Positions 5,688 to 50,125 of a DNA stretch of 64,000 bases are shown here, one piece after another; the first letter of the stretch is position 1; the number at the start of each line of letters is the position of its first letter. The translations under genes and the position numbers were made by a program. This DNA comes from a virus (lineage: Duplodnaviria; Caudoviricetes): positions 872-64,871 of the IMG/VR virus record IMGVR_UViG_3300032288_002134; one strand, written 5' to 3'. The notes beneath the pieces were generated by a model. That model saw nothing but the letters and a program-made list of their open reading frames with translations, was not told where the DNA came from and did not search any database.

Positions 5688-5714
5688 AATCCATGTCGAT
5701 TTTTTTATGTACAG

Positions 5715-5738
5715 GGTGGCTGAAAAGTCACCTTTTTT
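5715..5738 (+). terminator. intrinsic terminator
   Basis: GGTGGCT-GAAA-AGTCACC followed by T6. Confidence 0.75.
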
Positions 5739-5975: not shown

Positions 5976-6026
5976 ATAAAACCCAAGATTACCGGTTTTA
6001 TAAAAGTAGAAATTCCTATTGGTATG

Positions 6027-6057
6027 TTTGGTGGTTTAAAAAGAATTATTATCTTTG
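6027..6057 (+). promoter_or_regulatory. Bacteroidota-type sigma-A promoter of groEL
   Basis: TTTG (6027-6030), 19-nt spacer, TATCTTTG (6050-6057). Confidence 0.7.
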
Positions 6058-6104
6058 CTGCACGATAAATATTTTAACATTCTTTAATTCAATTCAATTT
6101 AATT

Positions 6105-7739
6105 ATGTTTGACAACACAGGTTACACTCCGAAGGATTTGTTGTTCGGAGACGATGCTAGAGCCAAGCTCATTAGTGGCATAAACAAGATTGCCAATGCG
6201 GTGAAGAGTACATTAGGTCCTGGAGGGAATACGGTACTGATAGAGTCACCTCATCACACACATGGTATTACAGTTACGAAGGATGGTGTCACAGTTGCGA
6301 GAGCTGTGGACTTGTTTGATCCGGTGGAGAACCTTGCGGTAAGGATGATGAAGGAGGCAGCGGACAGGACTGCTACCAATGCAGGTGATGGTACTACGAC
6401 AGCGATAGTGTTGACAGAGGCACTGGTGCTTGAGGGTATAAAGAGGCTTACGCCAGAGGTGAACAGGACAGAGGTGCTGAGGCACATGGGTGACATAACA
6501 GGGAGTATAGTAGAGCAGCTTCGTAAGAGGGCTAAGAAAGTGACGAACTCGTTATTGTTGGATGTGGCTACCATATCGGCTAATAATGACAAGGAGATAG
6601 GTCGGATAATATCCGAGGTGTATAAAGAGATAGGGAGAACCGGTATCGTTACCGTTGAGAAATCACAGACCTATGAGACCTATGCAGAGACAACGAAAGG
6701 GATAAAGTTCGACAGAGGGTACACATCCAATCTGTTTATCAACGACCATAAGAAAGACGAGTGCGTATTTGAGGATGTGATGGTGTTGGTTGCCGACATT
6801 GAGATAAGTAACATCCTGCAAGTAGAGAACATACTAAAACCAATCATAACCGAGGGCAAAAAATTGCTCATCATTTCCCCCTGTAGCACTAACGTGGTGA
6901 ATACACTGGCTGCCAATGTAGTGAAAGGCAATGTAAAGGTTTGTGCTGTTGCCCCACCAAACTTCGGGTACAAACAACATGAGCTGATGCAAGACATTGC
7001 TGTCAGTGTAGGTGCTACATACTTCAGCGAGAAGACCGGTGATGATCTGTCAATTATGAACTATGGAGACCTGGGTCATGCTGCCAAGGTCATCGTGTCC
7101 AAAGACAGCACTGTGATCCTTAAATCGGAGTTCAAGTCAAAGCCTGAGATGATTGACGAGAGAGTGAAGCAGTTATGGTCTGCTCACGCTGCTGCAAAGC
7201 GCAAGGCAGACAAAGACTTCATCCTTGAGCGTATCGCTTCGCTTACCGGTGGTATTGGTGTCATCTTCGTGGGTGGTAATACTGACCTGGAGCAGAAAGA
7301 GCTTTATGACAGAGTGGATGATGCGGTATGTGCTGTGAGGTCTGCATTAGAGGAGGGTATCCTTCCAGGAGCAGGCAAGGCATTGTACGAGGTGAACGTG
7401 TTTGGTATCATGGGGGATAATCCAAGCCATGAGAGAAAGGTGGCTGCGCATATCATCCATCATGCACTGTCAAGACCACTATGCCAGATCCTTGAGAACG
7501 TAGGGTTGAGAATAGAGCAGATATATGTTGACAACTGCGATGAGGGCTATGGGTATAATGTCAAGACAGAAGACTTTGGAGACCTTATCAAAATGGGGGT
7601 CGTTGACCCATTGAAGGTGACAAGGAGCGCACTCCAAAATGCTGTTAGCGTAGCGACAACAATTCTTAGCACTAATGCCATCGTCACAATGGCAAGAAGC
7701 TTTGAGATTGCTAACGTATCTAAAAACCCAATGCAATGA
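6105..7739 (+). CDS. groEL: chaperonin GroEL
   Basis: STLGPGG, VTKDGVTVA, AGDGTTTA, GVVDPLKVTRSALQNA; lacks the GGM tail. Confidence 0.97.
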   Translation: MFDNTGYTPKDLLFGDDARAKLISGINKIANAVKSTLGPGGNTVLIESPHHTHGITVTKDGVTVARAVDLFDPVENLAVRMMKEAADRTATNAGDGTTTAIVLTEALVLEGIKRLTPEVNRTEVLRHMGDITGSIVEQLRKRAKKVTNSLLLDVATISANNDKEIGRIISEVYKEIGRTGIVTVEKSQTYETYAETTKGIKFDRGYTSNLFINDHKKDECVFEDVMVLVADIEISNILQVENILKPIITEGKKLLIISPCSTNVVNTLAANVVKGNVKVCAVAPPNFGYKQHELMQDIAVSVGATYFSEKTGDDLSIMNYGDLGHAAKVIVSKDSTVILKSEFKSKPEMIDERVKQLWSAHAAAKRKADKDFILERIASLTGGIGVIFVGGNTDLEQKELYDRVDDAVCAVRSALEEGILPGAGKALYEVNVFGIMGDNPSHERKVAAHIIHHALSRPLCQILENVGLRIEQIYVDNCDEGYGYNVKTEDFGDLIKMGVVDPLKVTRSALQNAVSVATTILSTNAIVTMARSFEIANVSKNPMQ

Positions 7740-8098
7740 GCTTAAACATTCTAGCCGAAAGGATACATAATGGGAATAAGAACAGAGGCTTTTGGGATGA
7801 GAAGCGTAACGTAGGCGAGATGCTTATGCTTGTCGTTACAGAGCTGTCAGAGGCTCTTGAAGCACATAGATCCGGAAAGATGTTCAATAAAGCCAACAAG
7901 ATAAACTACGAGGGAGCAGAGGATATGACTCAGGCGTTCAAAGATAATATCAAGGATACCTTTGAGGATGAGATAGCCGATGCGATAATACGCTTGTTGG
8001 ATATGTGTGGTGGTCTAGGTATAGACATAGAGTTTCATGTGTTATCAAAAGTATTATATAACTCTACAAGACCATACAAGCATGGAAAGAAATATTGA
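7736..8098 (+). CDS. MazG-like all-alpha NTP pyrophosphohydrolase
   Basis: LVVTELSEALEA...EDEIADAIIRLLD (ExxE...ExxD). Confidence 0.8.
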   Translation: MSLNILAERIHNGNKNRGFWDEKRNVGEMLMLVVTELSEALEAHRSGKMFNKANKINYEGAEDMTQAFKDNIKDTFEDEIADAIIRLLDMCGGLGIDIEFHVLSKVLYNSTRPYKHGKKY

Positions 8099-8306
8099 AA
8101 TGGTAAACCATCCGGACCATTATGGAGGAAAAGATAACCAATACGAAGCAATAAAAGTAATAGAGGCTTGGAATCTTGACTTCCACCTTGGGAATGCCGT
8201 AAAGTATATCTCAAGAGCAGGTAAAAAAGAGTCTATGATACAAGACCTAGAGAAAGCAAAATGGTATCTTGAAAGAAAAATACAAATCTTAAAAACAAAA
8301 TTCTAA
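8082..8306 (+). CDS. DUF3310 (T7 gp1.7/SaV-like nucleotide kinase family)
   Basis: VNHPDHY, GNAVKYISRAGKK, DLEKAKWYL. Confidence 0.85.
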   Translation: MERNIEMVNHPDHYGGKDNQYEAIKVIEAWNLDFHLGNAVKYISRAGKKESMIQDLEKAKWYLERKIQILKTKF

Positions 8307-9151
8307 TGAAACATTCTCTCCACTCTTCGTTCTATCCACATATTGATGGGCGTAAGTTTACAGCAGTAGTAAAAAAGCTAAGACAGTTCTTTGATGAGAG
8401 AGGCTTTCTTGAGGTACATACTCAGAACAGACTTAGCATCCTATCTGCCTGTGAAGACCCATTTAACATCAGAACATTCTACTATAATCGAAACACCTAT
8501 CCGCTTCCGCAGACTGGGCAGATGTGGCTTGAGCATGAGCTACTGAATAATCCAAAAGAGAAAGGGTTCTATTGTCTTTCGACAAGTTACAGAGATGAAG
8601 CCAATCCGATAGAGGGAAGACACTGCCTCATCTTCCCAATGTTTGAGTTTGAGTTCCCAGGTAGTATGTCAAACCTCCACTTGATGGAGACAGAATTGTT
8701 AGAGTTTCTCGGTTTCAAAGACCATCAGATTGCCAACTATGAAGATCTGTGCAAAGAATACAATGTCGAAATCATAGACTCAGAGGTAGAAGGCAAGATA
8801 GGAAATGAGAAGTCAAACGTATTCTCAATCTTGAACTTTCCGGAAAGAACCAATCCATTCTGGAATATGGCAAGAGCCAATAACGGCAAAGCTAAAAAAA
8901 TTGATGTCATCCTGTACGGACAAGAGACCATTGGAAGCGCAGAGCGTTCTTGCGATAAGGAAGAGATGAGAAAGATATTCTTTGAGATTGAAGGAGGCAG
9001 ATATGCCGATAAGCTATTCAGTCTTTTTGGATATGACAGAGTAATGACTGAGCTAAACGAGTTTCTATCAAATGACTTCTTCCAAAGAGTAGGTGGTGGT
9101 ATTGGTATCACCAGACTTATCAGGGCAATGGAGTTAAATAATATCTTATAG
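8306..9151 (+). CDS. class II aaRS catalytic-domain paralog (AsnRS/AspRS-like, no anticodon domain)
   Basis: Motif 1 FFDERGFLEVHT, motif 2 YRDE...RH..IFPMFEFE, motif 3 GGGIGITRL; 281 aa. Confidence 0.85.
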   Translation: MKHSLHSSFYPHIDGRKFTAVVKKLRQFFDERGFLEVHTQNRLSILSACEDPFNIRTFYYNRNTYPLPQTGQMWLEHELLNNPKEKGFYCLSTSYRDEANPIEGRHCLIFPMFEFEFPGSMSNLHLMETELLEFLGFKDHQIANYEDLCKEYNVEIIDSEVEGKIGNEKSNVFSILNFPERTNPFWNMARANNGKAKKIDVILYGQETIGSAERSCDKEEMRKIFFEIEGGRYADKLFSLFGYDRVMTELNEFLSNDFFQRVGGGIGITRLIRAMELNNIL

Positions 9152-9172
9152 ATTTGAATTTTAGGAATGTTA

Positions 9173-9199
9173 GGGGCTAGGGAAACCTAGTCCTTTTTT
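9173..9199 (+). terminator. intrinsic terminator before groES
   Basis: GGGCTAGG-GAAA-CCTAGTCC followed by T6. Confidence 0.75.
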
Positions 9200-9220
9200 A
9201 AATTAAATCAAATTAAATTT

Positions 9221-9478
9221 ATGCAACCAATAGGTAAATACATCGTGGTCTCCAATATTGACGAGGAGATAAAGACAGACTCAGGAATAATCCTTTCCGG
9301 AGAAGATGCCAATCAGTTCAGATACAAGAAAGGCAAAGTAATAAAGCCAGGTACTGACGTATCTGTCATCAAAGAAGGTGATGTAATCTACTATGACAAA
9401 GGGCAGTCATTCACTATGATCATCAACGATGGTCAGTACACTATAATTCGGGAAGTTGATGTTGTTGTAGTTTCCTAG
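9221..9478 (+). CDS. groES: co-chaperonin GroES
   Basis: MQPIGKYIVV, KTDSGIIL mobile loop, GKVIKPG, IKEGDVIYY. Confidence 0.88.
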   Translation: MQPIGKYIVVSNIDEEIKTDSGIILSGEDANQFRYKKGKVIKPGTDVSVIKEGDVIYYDKGQSFTMIINDGQYTIIREVDVVVVS

Positions 9479-9884
9479 CCTCATTCATTTTCTTTATCAT
9501 TTGCTTATATACCTTGTCGGTATAAGAAACATTCTTTGCGAACATTGGATTATTTGTTACAGTCATTGGAACTAGATCTCCATTGAGCTTCTCATATATT
9601 CCATTGACGATATTCCTTCCCTTTTTAGATAGCTGATAGAGTCTTCTTGAATTTTTATTTTCTCTGAATATTTCAATAAGACCTTTCTCTATCATGTTTT
9701 TTATCCTATTCTTATTCCAAGGCAATATCCCTTGGTAATCTTTTATTTTGATGTAGTCGAAATACCCTTCTGAGTATAAAAACAACAGCATATCCAACTC
9801 TTGTTGCGATATGTCATACTTTCTTTTGTAGAAATAAAATATTACTTTGTAATATTTCAGATAGTCTTTTGGAATTTTTGTCAT
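9441..9884 (-). CDS. MarR-like winged-helix DNA-binding protein
   Basis: ISQQELDMLLFLY...MIEKGLIE...RRLYQLSKKG. Confidence 0.65.
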   Translation of the reverse strand: MTKIPKDYLKYYKVIFYFYKRKYDISQQELDMLLFLYSEGYFDYIKIKDYQGILPWNKNRIKNMIEKGLIEIFRENKNSRRLYQLSKKGRNIVNGIYEKLNGDLVPMTVTNNPMFAKNVSYTDKVYKQMIKKMNEARKLQQHQLPEL

Positions 9885-9964
9885 AAGATTAAATTTAATT
9901 AGATTTTTTTGTAAATATAATAAAGAAAAACATTTATATTTGACCTTAAAATAAATTTTGTACT

Positions 9965-10159
9965 ATGGCAAAAGAAAAAAGTTTATCTCAGAGGCTAAAT
10001 GATATAAATTTTAGCAATAGCCAAATACCTTTGGTTACAAATTTGCAAGAAGGAAAGAAAAAAATGGGTCGTGGATCAAAAAGAACACAGAGTTCTACAA
10101 AGATACAAGGTCTACAGACACTAAAGAATACACTTGGAACGCAGTATATGAAAAAGTAA
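9965..10159 (+). CDS. small basic protein
   Basis: ORF downstream of TATATTTG (9935-9942). Confidence 0.6.
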   Translation: MAKEKSLSQRLNDINFSNSQIPLVTNLQEGKKKMGRGSKRTQSSTKIQGLQTLKNTLGTQYMKK

Positions 10160-10189
10160 AGCAATTGTTAACAACTTAATTTTTAAAAA

Positions 10190-10360
10190 ATGAAAAAGAC
10201 CTCTTCAACTCCAAACTTACCTATGTCTTCTCGTCTTCAGCCTCCTGGTGGAAGCGACAAAACAGCTCCAATGATGGGTGCTAAACCTAAAAAAGGTGCA
10301 ACTAAGAAAGAAATGGGTGGTGCTACCAAAAAAGGAATGGCTAGCAAAAAGAAATACTAG
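10190..10360 (+). CDS. small Lys/Met/Gly-rich protein (56 aa)
   Basis: Read by eye: MKKTSSTPNLP...ASKKKY. Confidence 0.6.
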   Translation: MKKTSSTPNLPMSSRLQPPGGSDKTAPMMGAKPKKGATKKEMGGATKKGMASKKKY

Positions 10361-10623
10361 TGAAAATCGAAAGCCAAAAGCATATGGGGAGAAACCAACT
10401 TGTAGATAGGCTAGCATCGCAAGTTGGGTCTCTTCAAAAAGCCAAAAGTATTCTTATTAGCAGGGGTGACATGAAAAAAGATGGCACTCTTACCGAGGAA
10501 GGGCAAAAAAGAAATAAAATGACAGCTGAAGAACGTGCAATAGACAGAGCGTCTAAGAAATCAAAGCGTTCAAAGTCAGAATACACATACAATCCAATAA
10601 CAAACAGAGCAACTTTAAAATAA
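10360..10623 (+). CDS. small basic protein
   Basis: ORF; GTG start overlaps the previous stop. Confidence 0.65.
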   Translation: MKIESQKHMGRNQLVDRLASQVGSLQKAKSILISRGDMKKDGTLTEEGQKRNKMTAEERAIDRASKKSKRSKSEYTYNPITNRATLK

Positions 10624-10630
10624 AACAACT

Positions 10631-10807
10631 ATGGCAAAGGGAAAAAAGTCATTAGCCGAAAAATCAGAAAACGACATAGAATTACAATCGAAGATAGAGC
10701 AGCAAATAGAGCAACAAGTAGAGCAACAAGTAGAAGAAAAAAATCCTCACAACGAAGGAGTGACATCAAGAGATTATCGTAGCTTAATTAAAAAAGATGG
10801 CGAATAA
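10631..10807 (+). CDS. small protein with (I/V)EQQ repeats (58 aa)
   Basis: Read by eye; 12-nt tandem repeat TAGAGCAACAAG. Confidence 0.5.
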   Translation: MAKGKKSLAEKSENDIELQSKIEQQIEQQVEQQVEEKNPHNEGVTSRDYRSLIKKDGE

Positions 10808-11087
10808 ATCATCAATGAAATGCAATAATCCGGTAGCTTCTGATAGACCTGGAAAGAAAAACATGGTGAAAGCTTGTTCCGGTGGTCAAGAAAAACTGGT
10901 ACACTTTGGTGCTAAGGGTTATGGTAACAACTACTCCGATGCTGCAAGGAAAAGCTTCAAGGCAAGACATAAATGTGATAGCGCAGACGATAAACTAACA
11001 GCAAGATATTGGGCTTGCAAGCATCTGTGGGCAGGTAAAGGTGGATCAACAACAAGTAACCCTAAAAATAGACAAGGCAAATACTAA
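10797..11087 (+). CDS. conserved basic phage protein (DUF6321-like)
   Basis: KLVHFG...ARKSFKARHKC...ARYWACKHLW. Confidence 0.6.
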   Translation: MANKSSMKCNNPVASDRPGKKNMVKACSGGQEKLVHFGAKGYGNNYSDAARKSFKARHKCDSADDKLTARYWACKHLWAGKGGSTTSNPKNRQGKY

Positions 11088-11422
11088 TGAAAGACTCTTG
11101 TTACAAAAAAGTAAAAGCACAATACGATGTGTTTCCTTCAGCAAGGGCTTCACAGGCAATAGCCAAGTGTAGAAAGCAAAGCGGTAATGTAGTAAAGTCA
11201 GAAAAAGGCTCAAGCCTAAAGAGATGGGAGAAAGAAAATTGGGTTGACACAAGAACAGATAAACCTTGTGGCGCAGGTGGCAAGAATGAATATTGCAGAC
11301 CTACAAAACGAGTAAGTTCAGAGACACCAAAGACAAAAAGCGAACTAACCTCATCTCAATTGAAAAGTAAAAAGGCTGAGAAGTCAAGAGTCGGAATGGG
11401 TAACAGAGTAACTAAAGCATAA
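11087..11422 (+). CDS. conserved basic viral protein (DUF5872-like)
   Basis: FPSARAS, LKRWEKENWVD, YCRPTKRVS..TPKT. Confidence 0.55.
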   Translation: MKDSCYKKVKAQYDVFPSARASQAIAKCRKQSGNVVKSEKGSSLKRWEKENWVDTRTDKPCGAGGKNEYCRPTKRVSSETPKTKSELTSSQLKSKKAEKSRVGMGNRVTKA

Positions 11423-39799: not shown

Positions 39800-42700
39800 A
39801 TGAACGAAGAGGCAGTAAAATACGCTTTTGATTTATTTGTAAAAGATGGATATGGTGATAATATAGATGATTTTAGAAATCTAATGAAATCAGATCCAAA
39901 AGCAATTGATTATGTTTTTAATTTATTTGTAAAAAATGGATATGGTGATAATATAAATGATTTTAAAAATCTATTAGGAATTACTCAATCCCAAGCAATC
40001 ACTCCAAAAAAAAAAGGAGAGAGTATGGTATCCGACTCGGAAGTTTCTTCTTCGGGTTTACCATCGGGTGAACAGCCTAAGCTTGAAGAGATACCTTTCT
40101 CTTTGGATTATCAGAAGCAACAGCAGCAAGTACCATTTAAGCCTTCAACTCCGGTAACTCAACCTGAGCAGAAAAGAGACGTGTCTAAACTAAAAGAATA
40201 TGATACTACTCAACAGTATGACAGATATGGTGTGCCTGTTACTCAGTTTCCTACAGCACAAAGAGAAGAGTATTTAGCTAAACCGGTACAGCAGATTGAG
40301 ACAAAAGTCAAGTTTGAAGAAAAGAAAGAGGAGCTTGAGAAACAAGTACCTGGTTTCTTAAAGCCATCTGTAGAGACAATAGACAAAAACTTTTTAGCTA
40401 GAACTTCACTTCCAATAATAAGCGATTTAAACAGACAATACAAAGAAGCAGGTTTTGAGTTTTCAGGCAATCCTGCTGATAAAACATATTTAATAGCAAA
40501 AGCTCCAAATGGACAAACATTAAATATCAATTTAGGATATTTTAATAATGCAGGATATATAAATGATATATCAGATGAAGCAGAAAGGTTAAAAGTTTTT
40601 ATCAAAGAAAATTCTCCATCTATACCGACTGAAAAAGTAAATAAATTACAAAAGGAATACGAGGAAGGTAAGCAAGAATTTCTTACACAAAAACAAATAG
40701 ATGAATCGAATAAATCTCTTTCAAAAGATTTAGAAGATTATGGCAAAAGAAATTTATCTTATACTCAGAGTTTAGATAATTTAAAAAAATCAATTGATGA
40801 ATTTAATGCAATACCTGAAAGTCAAAGAAATACTCCTGAATATATAAATAGAAGAAATGAAATTCAAAAACAAACTGATATATTGATTTCAGAGGAGAAC
40901 AGTCTTAAGCAATTTGAGAAAGATATAGAAGCTAAACAAAGTAATTTAAAAAAGTCACTAGGAGAATATACAAAGTATAAAGAAAATCAAGGTACTTTTG
41001 CAGGTGGTATTTGGAATTCAATATCAAATACAATAAGTTCAATGGTCGCAGGAACTGTTGCTGCCGGATCTGATATTATAACAGGGGCAACTCCTGCTGA
41101 ATGGTTATTAGGTAAAGAAGAATATGAAAAGCAATTCACTCAGATTGCCAAAGAAAAATATGGAATAGAAGGAGATAAATTTGATGACATAATAAGAAAT
41201 GATAAGTTAACAGAAGGAAGAGCAGCTCTTATAAATAGTGAATTAAAAGACAGAGTAAAGAAAGAACGAAAATATGGCAAAGAAGGGGAAGAAGGTGTAA
41301 TAAAATATCTAAGAGGTAGTGTGTATGATTTATTGGCAGATAAAAGCACTACTGAACAATGGGCTGAATTAAAAAATAAATCATTTATACCTCAAGCTAT
41401 ATTGGGTGTTAGTGGTAGCCTTCCAAATATGTTGATGCCTGGGGGTTGGATAGGTCGTGCTTTAGGTACTTTTATATCTACTTCTGATGGTGTATTTAAA
41501 GAAATGGAAAATAGTCCTAATTTCCAAAATATATCTGAAAATGAAAAATGGGCTGTTGCTGCTCCTTTAGGAATGGCTTCTGCTACATTAGAAGAGATAG
41601 GTTTATCTTCATTGTTAAAAGGAACTAATATAACAAAATATATAACAAAGATGGCATTAGACAAAGCAGGTGCTAATGTTACTCCAAATATATTTAAAGG
41701 ATTAGTAAAAAAAGAAGTTCAGGATTTAATATCTAATGGTACTCTAAAAGTAGTAAATGGTTTTTTAGCTGAAGCAGAAACAGGTGCTTTGCAAACAATA
41801 GCGGAATTTTCAATAAAGGATATATACAATACGGTAAAAGATAAAAAAGACGAAAACGGAAACCCTGTAAAGATGTTTGATACGCCTGATACTGTAACTG
41901 AATGGGTTACTGATGTATTGTATGGAGGTGCTGTTGAAGGTGTTGGAGGTCTTATGATTTCATCTGGTATGGCTGCTGCAAGTGCTTTTAATAATGACAA
42001 TTTTGTCAATATGGATAGCGATACTTTCAAGGCATTTGTTAATTCTTCAAATGATTTGAATGTAGAAAAAGCATTTATATCTGATTTGAAAAATAAGATT
42101 GCATCTGGAGATATGACAATGGCTGAAGGCAAGGATTTATTAAATAAATATAGACAAGCCAAAGGACTATTAAATTCATTGCCTAGCGAATTGGATGAAA
42201 AAGATAAAAGAGTAGCTTTAGATTTATTGAGTAAAAGAAAAAAGTTAGAGGATAAGATCCAAGGAAAAGATACAGCATTAGCTAAACCTATTCAGAATAG
42301 AATTGATCAAATTAACGAACAACTAAATCAAATAACAGAGAATGCCATTCAAAAGCAAACAGCAGGTGAAGTACCTGTACAGCCAGAAGCCGGAGTTGGC
42401 GAAGAAGTGGTCCAAGGAAAACCCGAAACAGGACTTGAAGTCACTTCCGAACAAGTTGTCACCGAAGAAAAGCCAAAAGAAGAGGTAGTAACACCTGAAG
42501 GTGTAGTAGAAAAAAAAGATATACAAGTTTACAGAGGTACATCTACTGGAAATAAATCTGATAAAGACGGAGTATCTTACCATACAACAGATAGAGGGTA
42601 TGCAGCGTTTTATGAAACAGGAAAAGAAAAGCCTGATAATAAAGCTTTAGAAGAACTTGAAGCCTTAACTCCTCCGAATAAACCAAATAAAGTAGAATTA

Positions 42701-45700
42701 TCAACTGAAGAGGAAGTAGATGCTTATGTTGATCAATGGATTTCTGACTATGAAGACGCAAAAAGATTCAAACCTGAGACTAAAATACCTTCAAGAGAAG
42801 AAGCTATATCAGAAATGAAACAGAGCGGTTATCCAATATTTCTTACTCAAGAAGAGGTTGATAACGAAAACAAAAAACAAGAGAAAAAATATAATTCTGA
42901 TTTAGAGAAATACAATCAAAAGAAATTAGAACTTGAAGATAAGGCTAAAAATTATTTATCACCCAAAAAAATATCTGGCAATTTCTTTAATCTTGGGATT
43001 GATTTTTCAAAAATGAATCCTCAACAGATATTTGAAAAATTGAAATCATTAGGAATATCAAGTGTGTTTAAAGGCGGTAATTTTTTAGACAATTATCATT
43101 CTGACTTAACAGAATATGCAAGAAAAAATAACATAGATTTCTATGATGGCATAACCGGTGGTGTTCAAGGTAGTATGAATACTGCTCCTCAAGAGATAAT
43201 TGAAGTTTCTAAATTAGAACAAGCACCTGCTGAGGTAAAGACTCCTGAGCAGGAAGCTGACCTATTGGAGGAATTACTGACCGGAAAGAAGAAAGAGCCG
43301 GCAATGACACCTCAAGTGGAAACAATGACACCTGGGGAAAAAGTAATGACACCTGAAGCGAAAGCGGAAGAAGAGATGATAGTTCAGCCTGAGTTTACCG
43401 AGCAGGATCAGGCAAGGAAGAGAGAGCTTGAAGATGCTCTGAAGAAGGCTGACAAGCGTAAGAAGAATGTTATGGTAGGTGAGGTGTCAATGCCAAAGGC
43501 TGAGGTTAAAGCAGAGCTTGATGCATTGAGACAGAAGGAGCAGGCTGTTGTTGAGGCAGAAGTTCAATCTATAGAAAAAATGTTATCAGCTCCTGAGCAA
43601 AAAGACAAAGGAAAGATAAGACAAGCTGTAACAAATGCAGTTAAGGCTATTGCTAAAATATTACCGAATACAAAGATAGTATTACACGAAACTAGTCAAG
43701 ATTATGTAAACGCTACCGGTGATACTGACAATGCATCAGGATTATATGTACCAAGCGCAGATGGAGGTACTATTCATATAAACTTATCTAATGCCAATAC
43801 AAGAACAGTAGGGCATGAGGTATTTCATGCTACATTACTCAGAGGTATTAAGACAGATGCTGAAGCTCAGAGATTAGCGAAAGCAATGATAGGAGCTGTA
43901 GCTAAGTCATTAAAACAATCAGGCGCAAATCAAGAGTTATTAAATGAACTTGAAAATTTCTTGTCTAACTATGATGAGAATATTCAAAATGAGGAATACT
44001 TAGCTGAAGTATTTGGATATCTCGCTGATGGATACCCACAGTTGACAGCACCTGAAAAAAGTATTATCAATAGATTCATTGAGAGAATAATGAAACTGTT
44101 TGGCTTAAAGCCAATGACAGACAAAGAGGTTATTGATTTTATGAATACCCTATCAAGGAAGGTAGCTACCGGTGAAGAGATAACAGAGAAAGAAGCAGGT
44201 ATTACAAAAAGAACTAAAGGAATATCTAATATAACAAAAAGATTTCAAGCAAATTTTATAGATCCTATTTCAAGACTTTCATTTGTTTATGATAAAAATA
44301 GTGAAAAATTTGAAAATTTAAAAAAGCAAGGATTTATAACTACAGATAAATCATTATCTGATTTTAATGGGAAATTTATATTCCTACATCAACCTGATGC
44401 AGCTTTTTCAGGTATGATTTATAAAAATAATGAACTTCTTGTTGAGGGAAAAGGAGGTGTTTTTTATCCTATTAAATTCCATGAAGATGGATATTTTTGG
44501 GCAAGTACATCAAAAACTGCCAAAAAAATGGCAGACGATTTAAATAAAGTATTAAAACAAAACAATGGAATTATTTATATGGCATTAACCTCTGCGCCAT
44601 ATGATAAACTAATGTCAAGCACAACAATGTCAAATGCAATACTTGATTTTTTCTCATCAAAAGCATTTGATAAAAATTTTAATATAACTCAAAAACAATT
44701 AAAAAATGCACTAATATTAGCTGCAAATAATGTAAAAGAAAAACAAAAAAAAGATAAAAAAACGGGAGAAATTACTACTAAAACTATAGGGTTAAATTTA
44801 AATATAAAACAAAATATTTCTTTAGAAAACATTCAAACTTTAATTAAAGAAAAATTAAATCCTGATAATAGTTCATTTGCAGATAGAAAGAATTTTGCTG
44901 AAGAGTTAATAAGAATAATGGCTGAGAATATTAAAGAAGATTCTAAGGCTATTGAACAATTTGGTAAATTATTCTCTGAAGGAATTCAAAATAAATATTT
45001 TAAAGGAATAACAAAAACAGGTAAATTAAGCATTAGTGCTGCAAATATGACTCAAGCACTATCTGAAATGTTTACTGAACCAATTTTAAAAGAAGGAATT
45101 GATAGAGAAAAAGGAGGTCAAGTATATGCTATATTAGAATTGAATGGTAAAGTTAAACCTGTTGAATCTAATAAACACGAATCATATCCTATGGCTATAC
45201 AGTCAGAAGGAAGTGAAAAAGTAAAAGTTCATGTTCTGAATGATAGACAGAATTGGTATGATGTATTTGAAGATTTTGAAACAAATGACATAGTAACTGA
45301 AGATAGAAAAAATAAAATATATCCTACTTCAGGAGTTTCGACAAGAGGATTAAAATTAAATACATCAAAAGTTGATGGCATATCACCTCGTCAGCAGAAA
45401 TCTACTGAAATAACAACAGATAAAGATGCTAAACCTGGCTTTGAAAAAGCTCTTAATTCGCTTAATGAAACTGAACAACAAAGAGAAGAATGGAGAAAAA
45501 CGCATAAAGTAAATCAAAAACAAAAACGTAATCCCATAGTAGAACAAGCTGTAAAAGATTATTATAATGAAAAAATAACTCAAGAAGAATATCTTGATAT
45601 AGTTTCTAAAAACCAACCTATTAAATCTTTTAAAAATGTTCCAAAATTACCAACTTTAAGAGAAATAACAAATTCTTTAGACAGCTCTAAAGTTGCCACA

Positions 45701-48700
45701 GGTATAATTGGATTAACTAAAAATTTAGAAGATGGAGAAAAAGTAGCTTGCAGATTAGATATACCTGCATATGAAGATTTTGATACTTGGGTTGTTTCTA
45801 TACATGATGGAAATAAAGAAGGAAAATCAATTGCATACGGTCAGACAGCTGTACTAAAAAATGTTGATTTTAAAACATTTCCTGGACCTGCAATGAAAAT
45901 TGCAATGGGTACTCAAAGTAAATCTACAATTGCTAGAATGTTTGGTAATTGGGTTAATGAAGATCCAGAATCAGTTCATGCAAGAGCAAAAGAACTAATG
46001 AATGACCCTGCTTGGACACAAGTAGGAATGAATCCATTTAGATATAGTTGGTTTTATGATAAGGCAGATGGAACGCCTATTTCTACAGCTGATGAAGTTA
46101 TTCAAGTGGGTGCATTAGTATTGGCTAAAAATGCAAAAAAAGTATCTACTAAAGATATAATGTTTGAAACTAAATCATCAACAGGATTATCAATAAGGTT
46201 TCAAAAAAATAATTCACAAGAAATTGTAAAACAAGCAAGAGCTAATGGTATATCAGATGCAGGCATAAGAGCCTATTTTAAAAAGAATGGTTTGTCTGAT
46301 ATTGAAATTGATGAATTACTTGAAGGAGAAAAAGGAGCAGGCAAAAAAATTGAGCTTTCTGAAGAGACTCTTCCTGGATACACCAAACTGATGAACAGAA
46401 TAAATGGTCTCATCTCAAGGGGTAGAAAAAGCGGAAAGTCTGATGATGTAATAATGCAAGGTGTTATTGCCAATGTAGAAGCAAACTCACCGGAATATGC
46501 CAATGCTACCGATCAACAGCGTGAGCAGATAATTCGTGACATCAGAAAGATGTTCGGAAAGAAAGAAAAGGCAGCACCATCAGCAGAGAAAATAACCGGT
46601 AAACCTAAATCTAAAAAGGTTACTGTAAATGAAATGGCTGCACTCAAAGACCAAATAAGATTAGAGGCAAGAGCTGCTAGAGAAGCTAAGGGTGATCTTA
46701 ATGCTAAACGTAAAATGTTAGCTGAGGCTATCAATAAACTCGTTGCTAAAGGTACTATTACCTTAAGACAAGCTAACGCTATTATCAAAAGGGTGAACCT
46801 GGTCAACCTTGACAATCCTATAATGGTTGAGAGATTACTTAATTATGCAGAAAAAGTATTTAAAGATGCTGAATATGCGGATAAATTAAGCGAAGCAAAT
46901 AAATTATTTTCATCTATAAAGCAATCGTCAAAGTCAAAAGAAAAGAATGCTGATTTAGTAACTCTTGCAAAAGAATTTTTAGGAATAGACCCATCTATGG
47001 TTGAGAATATAGATGAGTATATTCAAAAGGCTTCTGAGTTAGATAGTAGTTTAAAAGGTTCTAAGGCTACGGCAAAAGGTATGTCTGCTTCTGAAATGAT
47101 AAACATACAAGAAGCTACTGAATACATATCTGAAACAATAAAAGCTCAGGAGCAAAAGATAAAAGAACAGACTGCTGCTGAGATAGAGTCTACAATGGGT
47201 GTAGATGCATCTGATTTGACTTATGAACAAATGCTTGAGTTACTTGAAGATGAAAGTAAACCTATCAATAAAGATAAAGAAAAGGTTATCAGGAGTTTAG
47301 TTAATAAAATGTTTGATACATATTCAAGTATTATCGAATATATGTTTAAGACTGGTAAAAATCCTTTTGTTGTTTATGATGAGAATCTAAAATACGAACC
47401 GGTAACATTTAAAGAATCGGATAAGCAGATTGTTCGTGAATTTATGAAAATGGATCTCGGTAAGCTCAGTGTCAGAGAGGCATTGAAAGCTATGGATGCA
47501 TTAAATAACTTTATTGTCAATCGTTCAGTTGCCAATATGGGTTCTGTAGTAGCCCAATATAAAGCAAAACAAAACGCTGAAATAGTTGACAAAAAAAATA
47601 TAAGAAGCAAACCTGTAAAGTATTTATGGAGTAATACTTTGGGTAAAATGCTATTTGACAATTTTGCTTCATTCCCATTATTGATAGAAAGATTCTTTAA
47701 AAGTAAAGACATTGGTTTGTATGTATCCAGAATGATGGGTTTAAATGATTTGTTTAATGGTGCTTCTTCTGCAAAAACGATAACCGGTGTTGTAGTTAAA
47801 AACTATCTTGACCTATTCTCAAAAACAAAACCAAATGGTAAAGTATTTAATGATGCTTTTAACTTGGTAGAAAGGGGAATGGTTGCATTCATGTCAAGAC
47901 ACAAGATAGGAACGGATGCTCAGATAAAAGAAGAATTTAATGACAGAAAAAATGAAATTGAAGAGTCTATAAAAGCATTGTCTACAGGTACTAAAAGAGA
48001 ACAGGAAAAAGCTAAGGTTTATAAAGAAGTATATGACAAGTTGTTTAAAGATGCAAAGAACGCAGATGACATCAGAAATAATGCGGATAATAAAAATATA
48101 GAAGCTGTAGATTGGTGGGTTAACGAATGGAAAAATCATTATGATGAGTTAGCTGATGTATCATTAAAAATATACAATACAAAACTGGATAAGGATTCTT
48201 ATTACACCACCGATAGATATTCTAAATTGGAAGGGGTAGAAAAAGAAATAGATCTTGAGGATAATGTTTCAGCATTTAGCTTTAACAATGGAAATATATC
48301 TGAAAAGAAAGCAGGATCTTTAATGGAGACAAGAGATAAGAAATCGGGTCTTCCAAAAAATAAAGATGGAGAAGTCACAAGGTTTGTTGATTTATCTTTT
48401 GATGCCGTAAATGCAAATTCATTATACGATGCACTGACAGACATTAAAACTGCCTATGCTATTAAACAAGTAAAAGCATTTATGAAAACAGATGCTTTCA
48501 AAAGAATTGTACCTGATAAAGAAGAAAGAGATATATTAGGAAATAGAATAAACTTAGCTGTTAGAAATTTAAGAAATCAAAAATTATTTGATTCAAGTAC
48601 AATGAGTAAAGCTGTAAAGGGATTAAATAAATTTTCAAGCATTGGGTCTACAATGGCATTAGCCGGTATAGTGCAACCTTTTAAACAAACTATTCCTATA

Positions 48701-50125
48701 GCATTTAATACTGCTATAAATACAGGTAGATTTTTTGATTTATTACGGATACTAACAAATTCAGATGTAAAAGATTTTATTAACAATTCAGGATATTCAA
48801 TAGCAAATAGAGGTATAGAATCAAGTGTTCACCTTGAAAGTATAAATAAAAAATTAGATGAGGCTGCAAAGACAAAAGCTGAATATTTAGGTAATAAAAT
48901 ATTAGAATTGAATGAGATGTATATGAAACTTTTCTTGGCGAATCCTGATGCTTGGATAGCTAGAGCATCTTGGATGGCTTATTATGAAAAAGGGTTAAGA
49001 AAACAAGGTCTATACAAAACAACTGAAACAATAAAAACAGCTTCAGGAACTCGTGAGGTTACTAAAAAAGGAATTGATTATAGTAAGCATAAAATAAACA
49101 AAGAAGCTGCTGATTATGCTCAGATGATGATTGACAGACAGCAAAACATAACCGATACTAGATTGGCAGGTTCTATATATTCAGGTGAAAATGCCTTCCA
49201 AACTATGATGACAAAAATATTTTTGCCACTCGCCAGTTTTAGAATAAATCAACATTTGAGAATGTCTAATGACTTAGCAACTACATTTAGTAAAACTACA
49301 AGTTGGCAAGAAAAAAGAGAAGCATTAACATCTCTTTCAGGTGCAATAGTAGAAATGATTGTATTTAGAGCCATAGGAATAGGTGCTAGTTATTTATTTT
49401 TTGAATTAGCATCAATGATAAGAGGAGAAGAAGAAGATGAGGAGAAAAAGAAAAGAAAAGAAAAAATGGCTTCAAATACATTAAAAGGTATATTAACTGG
49501 AGCTGTAACAGATATATTATCTCCTATTCCTGTTACAGATTATCCGGTAAAGTATTCTGTTAATGCTGCAATGGATTTCACTCAGGATTTGATTGGAATG
49601 GGTGATGAAGATAAACTATCTTTATATGTTGAAAATATTCCTTCATTTTCAAGTGTATTAGGGACTGCCGGTATCTTTTTAGATAAAGTAGCAGATATAA
49701 AAGAAACAGCTCAAATGGCTGCTACAGGTAAGTTTGAACAAGATGTATTTGGTAAAAAAATTGAGAAAGAGATAAGCGAAAAGGACAGACAAATATTAGC
49801 ATGGTCTTTAATCCCATCAATACTCACAAATACTATATTACCTGGTGCGCCAGAGACAAATAATATTATGAGTAAAGTTAAAAAAGCTATTAAGAAAGAA
49901 GGTAAAACTGCCGATCAAAAAGAAAAATATGATGCATTTGGTGGGCATTCTTCTGAAAAAGAATTTAGAACGGAAAATCCTGAAAAGTACATGGAATCTT
50001 TGCAGCCAGGTGGTAGTTTATATGAATACAAAATGAGAGAAAATCAGAAAAAAATGGAAGAACTTCCAGAGAAATTACAAAAAAAGATGGAGGAGACTAT
50101 GAAAAAAGCAAATAAAATGCAGTAA
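39800..50125 (+). CDS. giant polyvalent virion protein (3441 aa) with zincin HExxH and possible ADP-ribosyltransferase-like segment
   Basis: TVGHEVFH...EEYLAE; VYRGT...SYHTTDRGYAAFY. Confidence 0.75.
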   Translation: MNEEAVKYAFDLFVKDGYGDNIDDFRNLMKSDPKAIDYVFNLFVKNGYGDNINDFKNLLGITQSQAITPKKKGESMVSDSEVSSSGLPSGEQPKLEEIPFSLDYQKQQQQVPFKPSTPVTQPEQKRDVSKLKEYDTTQQYDRYGVPVTQFPTAQREEYLAKPVQQIETKVKFEEKKEELEKQVPGFLKPSVETIDKNFLARTSLPIISDLNRQYKEAGFEFSGNPADKTYLIAKAPNGQTLNINLGYFNNAGYINDISDEAERLKVFIKENSPSIPTEKVNKLQKEYEEGKQEFLTQKQIDESNKSLSKDLEDYGKRNLSYTQSLDNLKKSIDEFNAIPESQRNTPEYINRRNEIQKQTDILISEENSLKQFEKDIEAKQSNLKKSLGEYTKYKENQGTFAGGIWNSISNTISSMVAGTVAAGSDIITGATPAEWLLGKEEYEKQFTQIAKEKYGIEGDKFDDIIRNDKLTEGRAALINSELKDRVKKERKYGKEGEEGVIKYLRGSVYDLLADKSTTEQWAELKNKSFIPQAILGVSGSLPNMLMPGGWIGRALGTFISTSDGVFKEMENSPNFQNISENEKWAVAAPLGMASATLEEIGLSSLLKGTNITKYITKMALDKAGANVTPNIFKGLVKKEVQDLISNGTLKVVNGFLAEAETGALQTIAEFSIKDIYNTVKDKKDENGNPVKMFDTPDTVTEWVTDVLYGGAVEGVGGLMISSGMAAASAFNNDNFVNMDSDTFKAFVNSSNDLNVEKAFISDLKNKIASGDMTMAEGKDLLNKYRQAKGLLNSLPSELDEKDKRVALDLLSKRKKLEDKIQGKDTALAKPIQNRIDQINEQLNQITENAIQKQTAGEVPVQPEAGVGEEVVQGKPETGLEVTSEQVVTEEKPKEEVVTPEGVVEKKDIQVYRGTSTGNKSDKDGVSYHTTDRGYAAFYETGKEKPDNKALEELEALTPPNKPNKVELSTEEEVDAYVDQWISDYEDAKRFKPETKIPSREEAISEMKQSGYPIFLTQEEVDNENKKQEKKYNSDLEKYNQKKLELEDKAKNYLSPKKISGNFFNLGIDFSKMNPQQIFEKLKSLGISSVFKGGNFLDNYHSDLTEYARKNNIDFYDGITGGVQGSMNTAPQEIIEVSKLEQAPAEVKTPEQEADLLEELLTGKKKEPAMTPQVETMTPGEKVMTPEAKAEEEMIVQPEFTEQDQARKRELEDALKKADKRKKNVMVGEVSMPKAEVKAELDALRQKEQAVVEAEVQSIEKMLSAPEQKDKGKIRQAVTNAVKAIAKILPNTKIVLHETSQDYVNATGDTDNASGLYVPSADGGTIHINLSNANTRTVGHEVFHATLLRGIKTDAEAQRLAKAMIGAVAKSLKQSGANQELLNELENFLSNYDENIQNEEYLAEVFGYLADGYPQLTAPEKSIINRFIERIMKLFGLKPMTDKEVIDFMNTLSRKVATGEEITEKEAGITKRTKGISNITKRFQANFIDPISRLSFVYDKNSEKFENLKKQGFITTDKSLSDFNGKFIFLHQPDAAFSGMIYKNNELLVEGKGGVFYPIKFHEDGYFWASTSKTAKKMADDLNKVLKQNNGIIYMALTSAPYDKLMSSTTMSNAILDFFSSKAFDKNFNITQKQLKNALILAANNVKEKQKKDKKTGEITTKTIGLNLNIKQNISLENIQTLIKEKLNPDNSSFADRKNFAEELIRIMAENIKEDSKAIEQFGKLFSEGIQNKYFKGITKTGKLSISAANMTQALSEMFTEPILKEGIDREKGGQVYAILELNGKVKPVESNKHESYPMAIQSEGSEKVKVHVLNDRQNWYDVFEDFETNDIVTEDRKNKIYPTSGVSTRGLKLNTSKVDGISPRQQKSTEITTDKDAKPGFEKALNSLNETEQQREEWRKTHKVNQKQKRNPIVEQAVKDYYNEKITQEEYLDIVSKNQPIKSFKNVPKLPTLREITNSLDSSKVATGIIGLTKNLEDGEKVACRLDIPAYEDFDTWVVSIHDGNKEGKSIAYGQTAVLKNVDFKTFPGPAMKIAMGTQSKSTIARMFGNWVNEDPESVHARAKELMNDPAWTQVGMNPFRYSWFYDKADGTPISTADEVIQVGALVLAKNAKKVSTKDIMFETKSSTGLSIRFQKNNSQEIVKQARANGISDAGIRAYFKKNGLSDIEIDELLEGEKGAGKKIELSEETLPGYTKLMNRINGLISRGRKSGKSDDVIMQGVIANVEANSPEYANATDQQREQIIRDIRKMFGKKEKAAPSAEKITGKPKSKKVTVNEMAALKDQIRLEARAAREAKGDLNAKRKMLAEAINKLVAKGTITLRQANAIIKRVNLVNLDNPIMVERLLNYAEKVFKDAEYADKLSEANKLFSSIKQSSKSKEKNADLVTLAKEFLGIDPSMVENIDEYIQKASELDSSLKGSKATAKGMSASEMINIQEATEYISETIKAQEQKIKEQTAAEIESTMGVDASDLTYEQMLELLEDESKPINKDKEKVIRSLVNKMFDTYSSIIEYMFKTGKNPFVVYDENLKYEPVTFKESDKQIVREFMKMDLGKLSVREALKAMDALNNFIVNRSVANMGSVVAQYKAKQNAEIVDKKNIRSKPVKYLWSNTLGKMLFDNFASFPLLIERFFKSKDIGLYVSRMMGLNDLFNGASSAKTITGVVVKNYLDLFSKTKPNGKVFNDAFNLVERGMVAFMSRHKIGTDAQIKEEFNDRKNEIEESIKALSTGTKREQEKAKVYKEVYDKLFKDAKNADDIRNNADNKNIEAVDWWVNEWKNHYDELADVSLKIYNTKLDKDSYYTTDRYSKLEGVEKEIDLEDNVSAFSFNNGNISEKKAGSLMETRDKKSGLPKNKDGEVTRFVDLSFDAVNANSLYDALTDIKTAYAIKQVKAFMKTDAFKRIVPDKEERDILGNRINLAVRNLRNQKLFDSSTMSKAVKGLNKFSSIGSTMALAGIVQPFKQTIPIAFNTAINTGRFFDLLRILTNSDVKDFINNSGYSIANRGIESSVHLESINKKLDEAAKTKAEYLGNKILELNEMYMKLFLANPDAWIARASWMAYYEKGLRKQGLYKTTETIKTASGTREVTKKGIDYSKHKINKEAADYAQMMIDRQQNITDTRLAGSIYSGENAFQTMMTKIFLPLASFRINQHLRMSNDLATTFSKTTSWQEKREALTSLSGAIVEMIVFRAIGIGASYLFFELASMIRGEEEDEEKKKRKEKMASNTLKGILTGAVTDILSPIPVTDYPVKYSVNAAMDFTQDLIGMGDEDKLSLYVENIPSFSSVLGTAGIFLDKVADIKETAQMAATGKFEQDVFGKKIEKEISEKDRQILAWSLIPSILTNTILPGAPETNNIMSKVKKAIKKEGKTADQKEKYDAFGGHSSEKEFRTENPEKYMESLQPGGSLYEYKMRENQKKMEELPEKLQKKMEETMKKANKMQ
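42342..42488 (+). CDS. overprinted 48-aa basic protein (MPFKSKQQVKYLYSQKPELAKKW...) in the +1 frame of the giant gene
   Basis: ATG after AACTAAATCAAATAACAGAGA leader; TAG at 42486-42488. Confidence 0.6.
   Translation: MPFKSKQQVKYLYSQKPELAKKWSKENPKQDLKSLPNKLSPKKSQKKR

Follow-up and report, generated by a model that had tools for sequence, protein, structure and literature searches.

A free-standing class IIb synthetase core between groEL and groES of a phage genome as a candidate enzyme of pyrimidine synthesis

Introduction

The catalytic core of class IIb aminoacyl-tRNA synthetases (aaRSs) also occurs in enzymes that have left tRNA charging behind. In the archaeal asparagine synthetase AS-AR (3p8t, 3reu and 3rex) and in bacterial AsnA, a core of ~290 amino acids (aa) freed from tRNA work forms a small-molecule amide via an acyl-adenylate. 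In EpmA/GenX (PoxA), the lysine ligase of elongation factor P (EF-P), a truncated class IIb core serves a non-tRNA acceptor. Here we describe a further core of this kind, a 281-aa protein hereafter called the ligase, encoded between groEL and groES in the virus record IMGVR_UViG_3300032288_002134 (Duplodnaviria; Caudoviricetes). The 64,000-nucleotide stretch that we analysed (the window) is nearly the entire phage record of 64,871 bases.

The metabolic setting to which we relate the ligase is the synthesis of uridine monophosphate (UMP). To our knowledge, a single six-step route to UMP, starting from carbamoyl phosphate and aspartate, is regarded as universal. Its first steps, catalysed by CarAB, PyrB and PyrC (CAD in eukaryotes), are feedback-controlled in the host. 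We consider it reasonably probable that the ligase is an ATP-dependent, adenylate-forming enzyme that gives dihydroorotate without carbamoyl phosphate, serving the phage as a pyrimidine-boosting auxiliary gene. It would share its proposed product, destined for PyrD, with the CarAB/PyrB/PyrC route, and it is found in operons and fusions as consecutive enzymes of a pathway are. It differs from that route in its unrelated fold and chemistry, in needing no carbamoyl phosphate, and in being one small protein where the known route has three enzymes.

Results

Genomic links to pyrimidine synthesis

Members of the ligase family are repeatedly joined to enzymes of pyrimidine synthesis. Nine of the 12 relatives longer than 492 aa are fusions of dihydroorotate dehydrogenase (DHODH, the pyrD product; PF01180) with the ligase, 584-661 aa in length, several of which were found on 2-7 contigs. 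One representative (P0174) fuses orotidine monophosphate (OMP) decarboxylase, the pyrF product, to the ligase. On a giant-virus contig (L104), the gene order is ribonucleotide reductase small subunit, DHODH, a joined orotate phosphoribosyltransferase (OPRT) and OMP decarboxylase (UMP synthase, UMPS), and ligase; on another (L087), DHODH is followed by the ligase.

A scan of cellular genomes, one per species, gave 412 confirmed matches, and neighbourhoods were read in the best 80 of the 412. Among these 80 loci, DHODH neighbours the ligase in 16, a PyrF/UMPS-type gene in 21, and either of them in 23. The operon at L196 reads ligase-phosphoribosyltransferase-pyrF-pyrD, with the phosphoribosyltransferase confirmed, and its ligase shares 57% identity with that of the window (E 3e-109). 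Other cellular arrangements are pyrD-UMPS-ligase (L167 and L168) and ligase-UMPS-pyrD (L230). The only cultured phages with the ligase in the collection are P-SSM2, P-SSM5 and P-SSM7, and an annotated orotate phosphoribosyltransferase is found in exactly the same three cultured phages.

Further cellular neighbours (among 110 scanned, phosphoenolpyruvate carboxykinase (PEPCK) 12, GldC-like 8, GldB 6 and Lyase_1 3) were judged to reflect lineage synteny and not function. Directly upstream of the ligase lie a Lyase_1 gene of the aspartase/fumarase family (L231 6552-7904), a gene of the aromatic-amino-acid-lyase family (L225 6473-7954) and, in 12 Flavobacteriales-type loci, ATP-dependent PEPCK (for example L173 6071-7675). 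These upstream genes may be lineage synteny, or hints on aspartate or CO2 supply.

We then compared pyrimidine enzymes between 45 of the 80 carrier genomes, nearly all of them metagenome bins of unreported completeness, and 14 control genomes, using curated model cut-offs:

PyrF (PF00215): 41/45 carriers, 14/14 controls
PyrD (PF01180): 39/45 carriers, 14/14 controls
PyrB (TIGR00670): 3/45 carriers, 14/14 controls
PyrC (TIGR00857): 4/45 carriers, with no match at all in 19; 11/14 controls
PyrC of the E. coli type (TIGR00856, a narrow model): 0/45 carriers, 1/14 controls
CarB (TIGR01369): 9/45 carriers, 14/14 controls
AsnB (TIGR01536): 29/45 carriers, 7/14 controls

The late enzymes are thus mostly kept and the early ones mostly missing. 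In a sample of 121 genomes from one order, PyrB was found in 108; the ligase was found in 3, each of which is among the 13 genomes that lack PyrB (P ~0.001 by our own arithmetic). The clearest example is the closed 3.2-Mb chromosome of G024: the ligase adjoins PyrD, UMPS lies 44 kb away, PyrB is absent, and the best PyrC-like match reaches 216 bits, versus 306-344 bits in PyrB-bearing relatives. Because PyrD is retained, and because the PyrD-ligase fusions would join consecutive steps, dihydroorotate is the product that we propose.

Eight genomes of the order of G024 (G055, G086, G098, G110, G121, G131, G150 and G153; 2.9-7.8 Mb) lack both a recognisable PyrB and a member of the ligase family. 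An OMP-decarboxylase gene is retained in seven, six of which have it as a UMPS-type frame of 469-490 aa, and no obvious candidate for a dihydroorotate or orotate source was seen beside UMPS in the four loci that were read (L251-L254).

The ligase protein and its family

The ligase matches PF00152 over profile positions 26-290 of 308 and has no N-terminal oligonucleotide/oligosaccharide-binding (OB) fold; no other Pfam family, AsnA included, was matched at E up to 0.01. Its AlphaFold model (predicted local distance difference test, pLDDT, 96.1; predicted template modelling score, pTM, 0.92) aligns to residues 228-531 of human AsnRS, and the best structural matches are AsnRS cores (Z 27.8, root-mean-square deviation (rmsd) 2.5, 252 residues aligned), with archaeal-type AspRS at Z 26.6 and LysRS at Z 23.8. 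AsnRS is likewise the best profile match (E 1.4e-14); a single-sequence search of solved structures gave two weak AspRS matches only. The arginines of motif 2 and motif 3 (R96 and R270) are invariant, and Z values to class IIb cores range over 24-28, as expected of a class II fold. The ligase therefore resembles the AsnRS catalytic domain (human NARS1, 8tc8 and 8h53; Brugia malayi, 2xti) in fold, profile and the class II motif 2 and 3 arginines. It differs in lacking the anticodon-binding OB fold, in its ~20% identity, in scores far under the NCBIfam cut-offs (asnS 20.7 bits versus 342.6; aspS_nondisc 30.3 versus 368.4), and in a context of pyrimidine synthesis instead of translation. EpmA/GenX is a comparable structural match (Z 23.8, rmsd 2.9, 257 aligned), but the NCBIfam EpmA models give 32.3 bits versus a cut-off of 264 and 24.3 versus 286.9, and there is no link to EF-P. 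In the GSAER stretch, the window ligase has Arg where LysRS and EpmA presumably have Glu.

The stretches QTGQMxLE, FEFE and GSAER of the ligase align to QSSQLYLE, VEAE and GGSMR of AsnRS, while archaeal AspRS has QSPQLYKQ; we take the aligned positions to be those that set specificity for Asn versus Asp. According to a structural report, E279, R322 and E324 of human AsnRS contact the Asn moiety, phosphate and adenylate in the complex with Asn-AMP (PMC10831071). They align to E50, R96 and E98 of the ligase, all invariant in the family. Given these conserved catalytic residues and the class IIb fold, the ligase should be an active adenylate-forming enzyme.

The ligase belongs to phrog_29758 (E 2.1e-101 over residues 13-276), to which PHROGs assigns unknown function, and it carries the invariant stretches of the family, PLPQTGQM, FPMFEFE and ETIGSAER. 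With a limit of E ≤ 0.001, the family numbers at least 8000 clusters at 90% identity. Of the 50% representatives, 618 match at E ≤ 0.001, 159 of them at E ≤ 1e-30, and nearly all members are ~280 aa long. Databases name them only 'tRNA ligase' or 'aspartyl/asparaginyl-tRNA synthetase', and the protein atlas gave nothing beyond generic 'tRNA ligase' viral clusters. A full-text literature search, which did not cover supplementary gene lists, found no account of this family, nor of any route to dihydroorotate that is independent of carbamoyl phosphate; the giant-virus papers that it returned concern other asparagine synthetase or AsnRS genes.

Over 246 members from phages, giant-virus bins and cells, 70 positions are ≥97% conserved, a figure that is somewhat inflated because loci were fetched via two conserved motifs, which makes these motifs themselves look more conserved. 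In a tree of 166 non-redundant members, the window ligase sits in a phage-only clade, and pyr-linked genes form three deep groups, which lie to either side of the midpoint root. This distribution, together with the conservation, suggests that the function should carry over to the clade of the window. One relative (P0279, 614 aa) has an N-terminal half resembling GIY-YIG and NUMOD3 homing endonucleases before the ligase domain; probably an endonuclease gene was inserted there, or was called together with the ligase.

Proposed reaction and its alternatives

In the mechanism that we favour, the free-standing core, which keeps the adenylate-forming machinery and has no anticodon-binding domain, would work in pyrimidine synthesis de novo. 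ATP would be used through adenylate chemistry, yielding adenosine monophosphate (AMP) and pyrophosphate (PPi), and the dihydroorotate formed would be handed to DHODH, so that the ligase would replace the carbamoyl-phosphate-dependent first steps of CarAB, PyrB and PyrC. In a phage, it would act as a single-gene auxiliary metabolic gene pushing the host pyrimidine supply past those steps. As the first steps of the host are under feedback control, such a bypass would help the phage.

Which substrate would be used is a separate and more tentative matter. The simplest single-enzyme route would have one small aaRS-derived enzyme convert asparagine, CO2 or bicarbonate, and ATP into L-dihydroorotate, which we regard as possible and no better than that. 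Here the α-amine would form a carbamate that is adenylated, and the ring would be closed through the nitrogen of the side-chain amide, giving AMP and PPi. The atoms balance, since Asn plus CO2 equals dihydroorotate plus H2O and one ATP-driven dehydration is enough. The route would also fit the pocket stretches, which match AsnRS and not AspRS, and the frequency of AsnB in carriers. Related chemistry is known: TsaC/Sua5 makes threonylcarbamoyl-AMP from threonine, bicarbonate and ATP, and dethiobiotin synthetase BioD closes a cyclic urea with CO2 and ATP. The likeness lies in the ATP activation of an amine carbamate and its closure to a ureido ring, as the asparagine route would need; the difference is that the folds of these enzymes are unrelated to that of the ligase, for which CO2 use is only proposed. 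Phages, giant viruses, bacteria of the Candidate Phyla Radiation (CPR), DPANN archaea, intracellular bacteria and predatory Bacteroidota or Myxococcota would be the users of such a route.

Several observations weigh against the ligase as a source of dihydroorotate. Everything behind this assignment is genomic, and the carriers are, as noted above, nearly all metagenome bins of unreported completeness. Three of the 45 carriers hold both PyrB and PyrC, and ~20 hold PyrC-like proteins of 180-262 bits, possibly PyrCs. In the sampled order, 10 of the 13 PyrB-less genomes have no ligase: they give weak matches only, inside 511-582-aa frames that, by their length, are probably ordinary synthetases. 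None of the ten has PyrB over the cut-off (two carry possibly genuine fragments, located at a contig end or close to one), and nine keep PyrF. Missing PyrB is therefore not explained by the ligase alone, and another source of dihydroorotate, or salvage, must serve these nine. A pyr gene neighbours the ligase in only 3 of 165 viral loci, so the viral ligase nearly always stands without pyr genes beside it. PyrD, PyrF and aspartate/ornithine carbamoyltransferase (ATCase/OTCase)-type domains were found in none of five whole phage records, and the window genome has no pyrD, pyrE or pyrF gene near the ligase. In a set of 85 viral loci (5 from named phage records and 80 viral contigs), five have a GTT-anticodon tRNA gene after the ligase. 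Finally, the conserved Glu aligned to the amino-acid contact of AsnRS fits a free amino acid, and so would suit an asparagine synthetase too.

A sub-variant of dihydroorotate formation would make the ligase an ATP-driven replacement for dihydroorotase only, taking N-carbamoyl-aspartate from the host pool, activating its β-carboxylate and closing the ring. The chemistry would be that of AsnA, namely β-carboxylate adenylation followed by amide formation; a bona fide PyrC is missing in 41/45 carriers; and viruses work in cells that make carbamoyl-aspartate, which makes this variant conceivable especially for them. In cells, by contrast, 42/45 carriers have no PyrB and 36/45 no CarB over the cut-off, leaving no evident source of carbamoyl-aspartate, so that it is an unlikely substrate there. 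Moreover, the acidic residues that bind the free amino group in AsnRS, according to the structural report, are invariant in the family. We consider this variant unlikely.

A slightly poorer prospect still is a plain AsnA-like asparagine synthetase that, like archaeal AS-AR, would make asparagine from aspartate, ammonia and ATP, giving an AT-rich phage more asparagine. The preliminary description of this locus had named that outcome, along with a lack of co-occurrence of its three genes elsewhere, as what would undo its proposal. Size and architecture are those of archaeal asparagine synthetase A (3rex: Z 24.3, rmsd 3.0, 249 aligned), the conserved Glu and Arg lie at positions aligned to amino-acid contacts of AsnRS, many carriers have reduced genomes, and the tRNA-Asn(GTT) gene follows the ligase in the five loci mentioned. 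But profile similarity to AS-AR reaches only E 0.001 to 4e-6 (4e-6 with a 77-sequence profile), as against 1.4e-14 for AsnRS, with no Pfam AsnA match and NCBIfam scores far under the cut-offs. Since AsnB is already present in 29/45 carriers, a second asparagine synthetase is not needed there. Above all, an asparagine synthetase offers no rationale for repeated fusions to DHODH or OMP decarboxylase or for operons with pyrD/E/F: by fusion, operon and phyletic pattern, the family is tied to de novo pyrimidine synthesis and not to asparagine metabolism.

An unusual tRNA lies next to some ligase genes. In P-SSM7, P-SSM2, P-SSM5 and two viral contigs, a GTT (Asn) tRNA of 85-88 nt with a long variable arm lies 10-18 nt 3' of the ligase (L001 5793-5879; L002 5801-5888; L003 5765-5852; 16-17 nt after the ligase in L081 and L085). 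It scores 52.8 bits against the Rfam tRNA model, with a 15-nt insert in the variable region, and compensatory changes distinguish the acceptor stems. For a tRNA that reads Asn codons, a class II shape is unusual. With the fold being closest to AsnRS, this tRNA could point to a truncated AsnRS whose role is to charge or modify either tRNA-Asn or the long cyanophage tRNA(GUU). We think this very improbable: the window genome has no tRNA genes anywhere, 80/85 loci have no adjacent tRNA, the anticodon-binding domain is missing, and pyr fusions and operons would be left unexplained.

The groEL-groES locus

The preliminary description had proposed that a MazG-like gene, a DUF3310 gene and the ligase, coupled to groEL and closed by a terminator, form one module. 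Five genes do lie head to tail on the + strand, and the run of three tightly packed genes was confirmed, as were the gene identities, the latter through Pfam and PHROG matches:

5713..5734, +: terminator-like hairpin 5' of the groEL run (terminator scan)
6105..7739, +: groEL, 544 aa, first gene of the run (PF00118, E 2.1e-53; phrog_5725, E 1.8e-133)
7736..8098, +: putative MazG-like all-alpha nucleoside triphosphate pyrophosphohydrolase, 120 aa (phrog_9236 'pyrophosphatase', E 6.6e-33; weak in Pfam, E 0.004)
8100..8306, +: DUF3310 small protein (PF11753, E 1.6e-17; PHROG 'nucleotide kinase' families)
8306..9151, +: ligase, stand-alone class IIb aaRS catalytic core, 281 aa (PF00152, E 1.7e-15; phrog_29758)
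9172..9205, +: terminator-like hairpin (10 pairs) with T run, called at 9172-9195 by the terminator scan, ending the run before groES
9221..9478, +: groES, 85 aa (PF00166, E 5.5e-11; phrog_3188)
9441..9884, -: divergent regulator-like gene, 147 aa (phrog_12817 'transcriptional regulator', E 4.5e-5), in the same position as the 'repressor' of the relative MW202828.1

The family matches lie far beyond chance. As read from the sequence, the groEL stop and mazG start overlap in ATGA, the mazG stop (8096-8098) is separated by one base from the ATG at 8100, and the DUF3310 stop and ligase start overlap in TAATG. Seven terminator-like sites were found, versus 2.6 expected in shuffles. The MazG-like gene matches three PHROG pyrophosphatase families (E 6.6e-33 to 1.7e-19); its Pfam MazG-like score of 17.8 bits is under the 27-bit cut-off, and NCBIfam gave no match. 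The DUF3310 frame is open from 8037, and its probable start is the ATG at 8100, which fits a Pfam match beginning at residue 23. The protein is little beyond the domain (63.7 bits versus a cut-off of 24, covering 1-60 of 60), and it matches PHROG 'nucleotide kinase' families at up to E 9.9e-25, a kinase role being predicted by family name only.

The survey of related loci, made by tblastn and phmmer, speaks against a module. Within ~5 kb of the ligase, a MazG-like gene was found in 3/85 viral loci and DUF3310 in 4/85, the latter never adjacent and always 1.4-2.4 kb off; all three genes together were found in 0/85. The contents of the groEL-groES gap also vary. In the nearest phage of the public collection, MW202828.1 (groEL 61% identical; L250 4001-5891), groES directly follows groEL with nothing between, the divergent regulator being present there too. 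In the nearest relatives of the window, the gap holds the ligase and a 171-aa gene with no known role (L012), or MazG, the ligase and that 171-aa gene (L006 and L014); in the window (7739-9221), it holds MazG, DUF3310 and the ligase. Because relatives differ in its gene content and MW202828.1 has it empty, the gap is a variable slot in which cargo genes come and go. The ligase travels independently of the MazG-like and DUF3310 genes and occurs in widely differing viruses, whose contigs span 30 to 735 kb. The other two would be separate nucleotide-related cargo that share the slot by chance, with the ligase co-expressed with them and groEL during infection. That all three serve a joint pathway, either of DNA base modification or of some other new nucleotide ligation, is suggested by their tight packing in one transcription unit and the nucleotide-related family names of all three, but the missing co-occurrence (none of the 85 loci, close relatives lacking one or both partners, the nearest database phage lacking all three) largely refutes it, and we give it almost no credence.

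Other features of these loci are recorded here for completeness. A conserved gene of 171-182 aa follows the ligase in the clade of the window and is absent from the window itself; it has no Pfam match and no similarity to the cyanophage OPRT (E 4.5). Megablast of window positions 6000-9600 against the phage collection gave no match. In other viral relatives, the company of the ligase includes ThyX (9 loci), dUTPase/Dcd-type genes (4 loci) and PPK2 (7 loci). In the 735-kb phage LR756501.1 (L005), the ligase is followed by a RimK-like ATP-grasp protein (6934-8496, E 1.7e-20) and by a 669-aa protein with a weak phosphoribosyltransferase domain (9305-11314, E 4.4e-5). In 24/85 viral loci, for example L033 2835-4694 (-), the gene immediately upstream of the ligase, in divergent orientation, encodes a full-length Hsp70 (PF00012, E 3.5e-256). 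A chaperone link, considered in view of Hsp70 in these loci and of groEL and groES in the window, found no support past adjacency.

The window genome encodes terminase, portal, structural and primase/helicase genes. A sequence near the start of the record recurs in its last ~77 bases, as expected if the assembly is circular or its ends are redundant, and the genome is therefore probably complete. An open frame of 3441 aa (39800-50125, +) takes up ~1/6 of the genome; its sole PHROG match is to a small family of unknown function (residues 1990-2104, E 3.4e-8), for which reason an N4-like label considered on account of this frame was dropped.

Discussion

Two parts of the preliminary description fared differently. 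Its three-gene module is, on the locus survey, not a real one, and nothing was found that points to base modification, alarmones or protein modification, which it had offered as possible functions. Its idea of an aaRS paralog doing non-tRNA chemistry tied to nucleotides is borne out by the links to pyrimidine synthesis. From comparative genomics, the ligase stands as a strong candidate for a new enzyme of this pathway.

If the ligase does supply dihydroorotate, it would be a new entry into pyrimidine synthesis that needs neither CarAB, PyrB nor PyrC. It would explain how pyrimidines are made in many bacteria, and in one archaeon among those checked, that have PyrD, PyrE and PyrF and lack the first steps, including CPR, Dependentiae, chlamydia-like bacteria and several Bacteroidota. 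A gene so far named only for tRNA charging, in at least 8000 clusters, would gain a function. For phages and giant viruses, it would be a one-gene lever to raise nucleotide supply.

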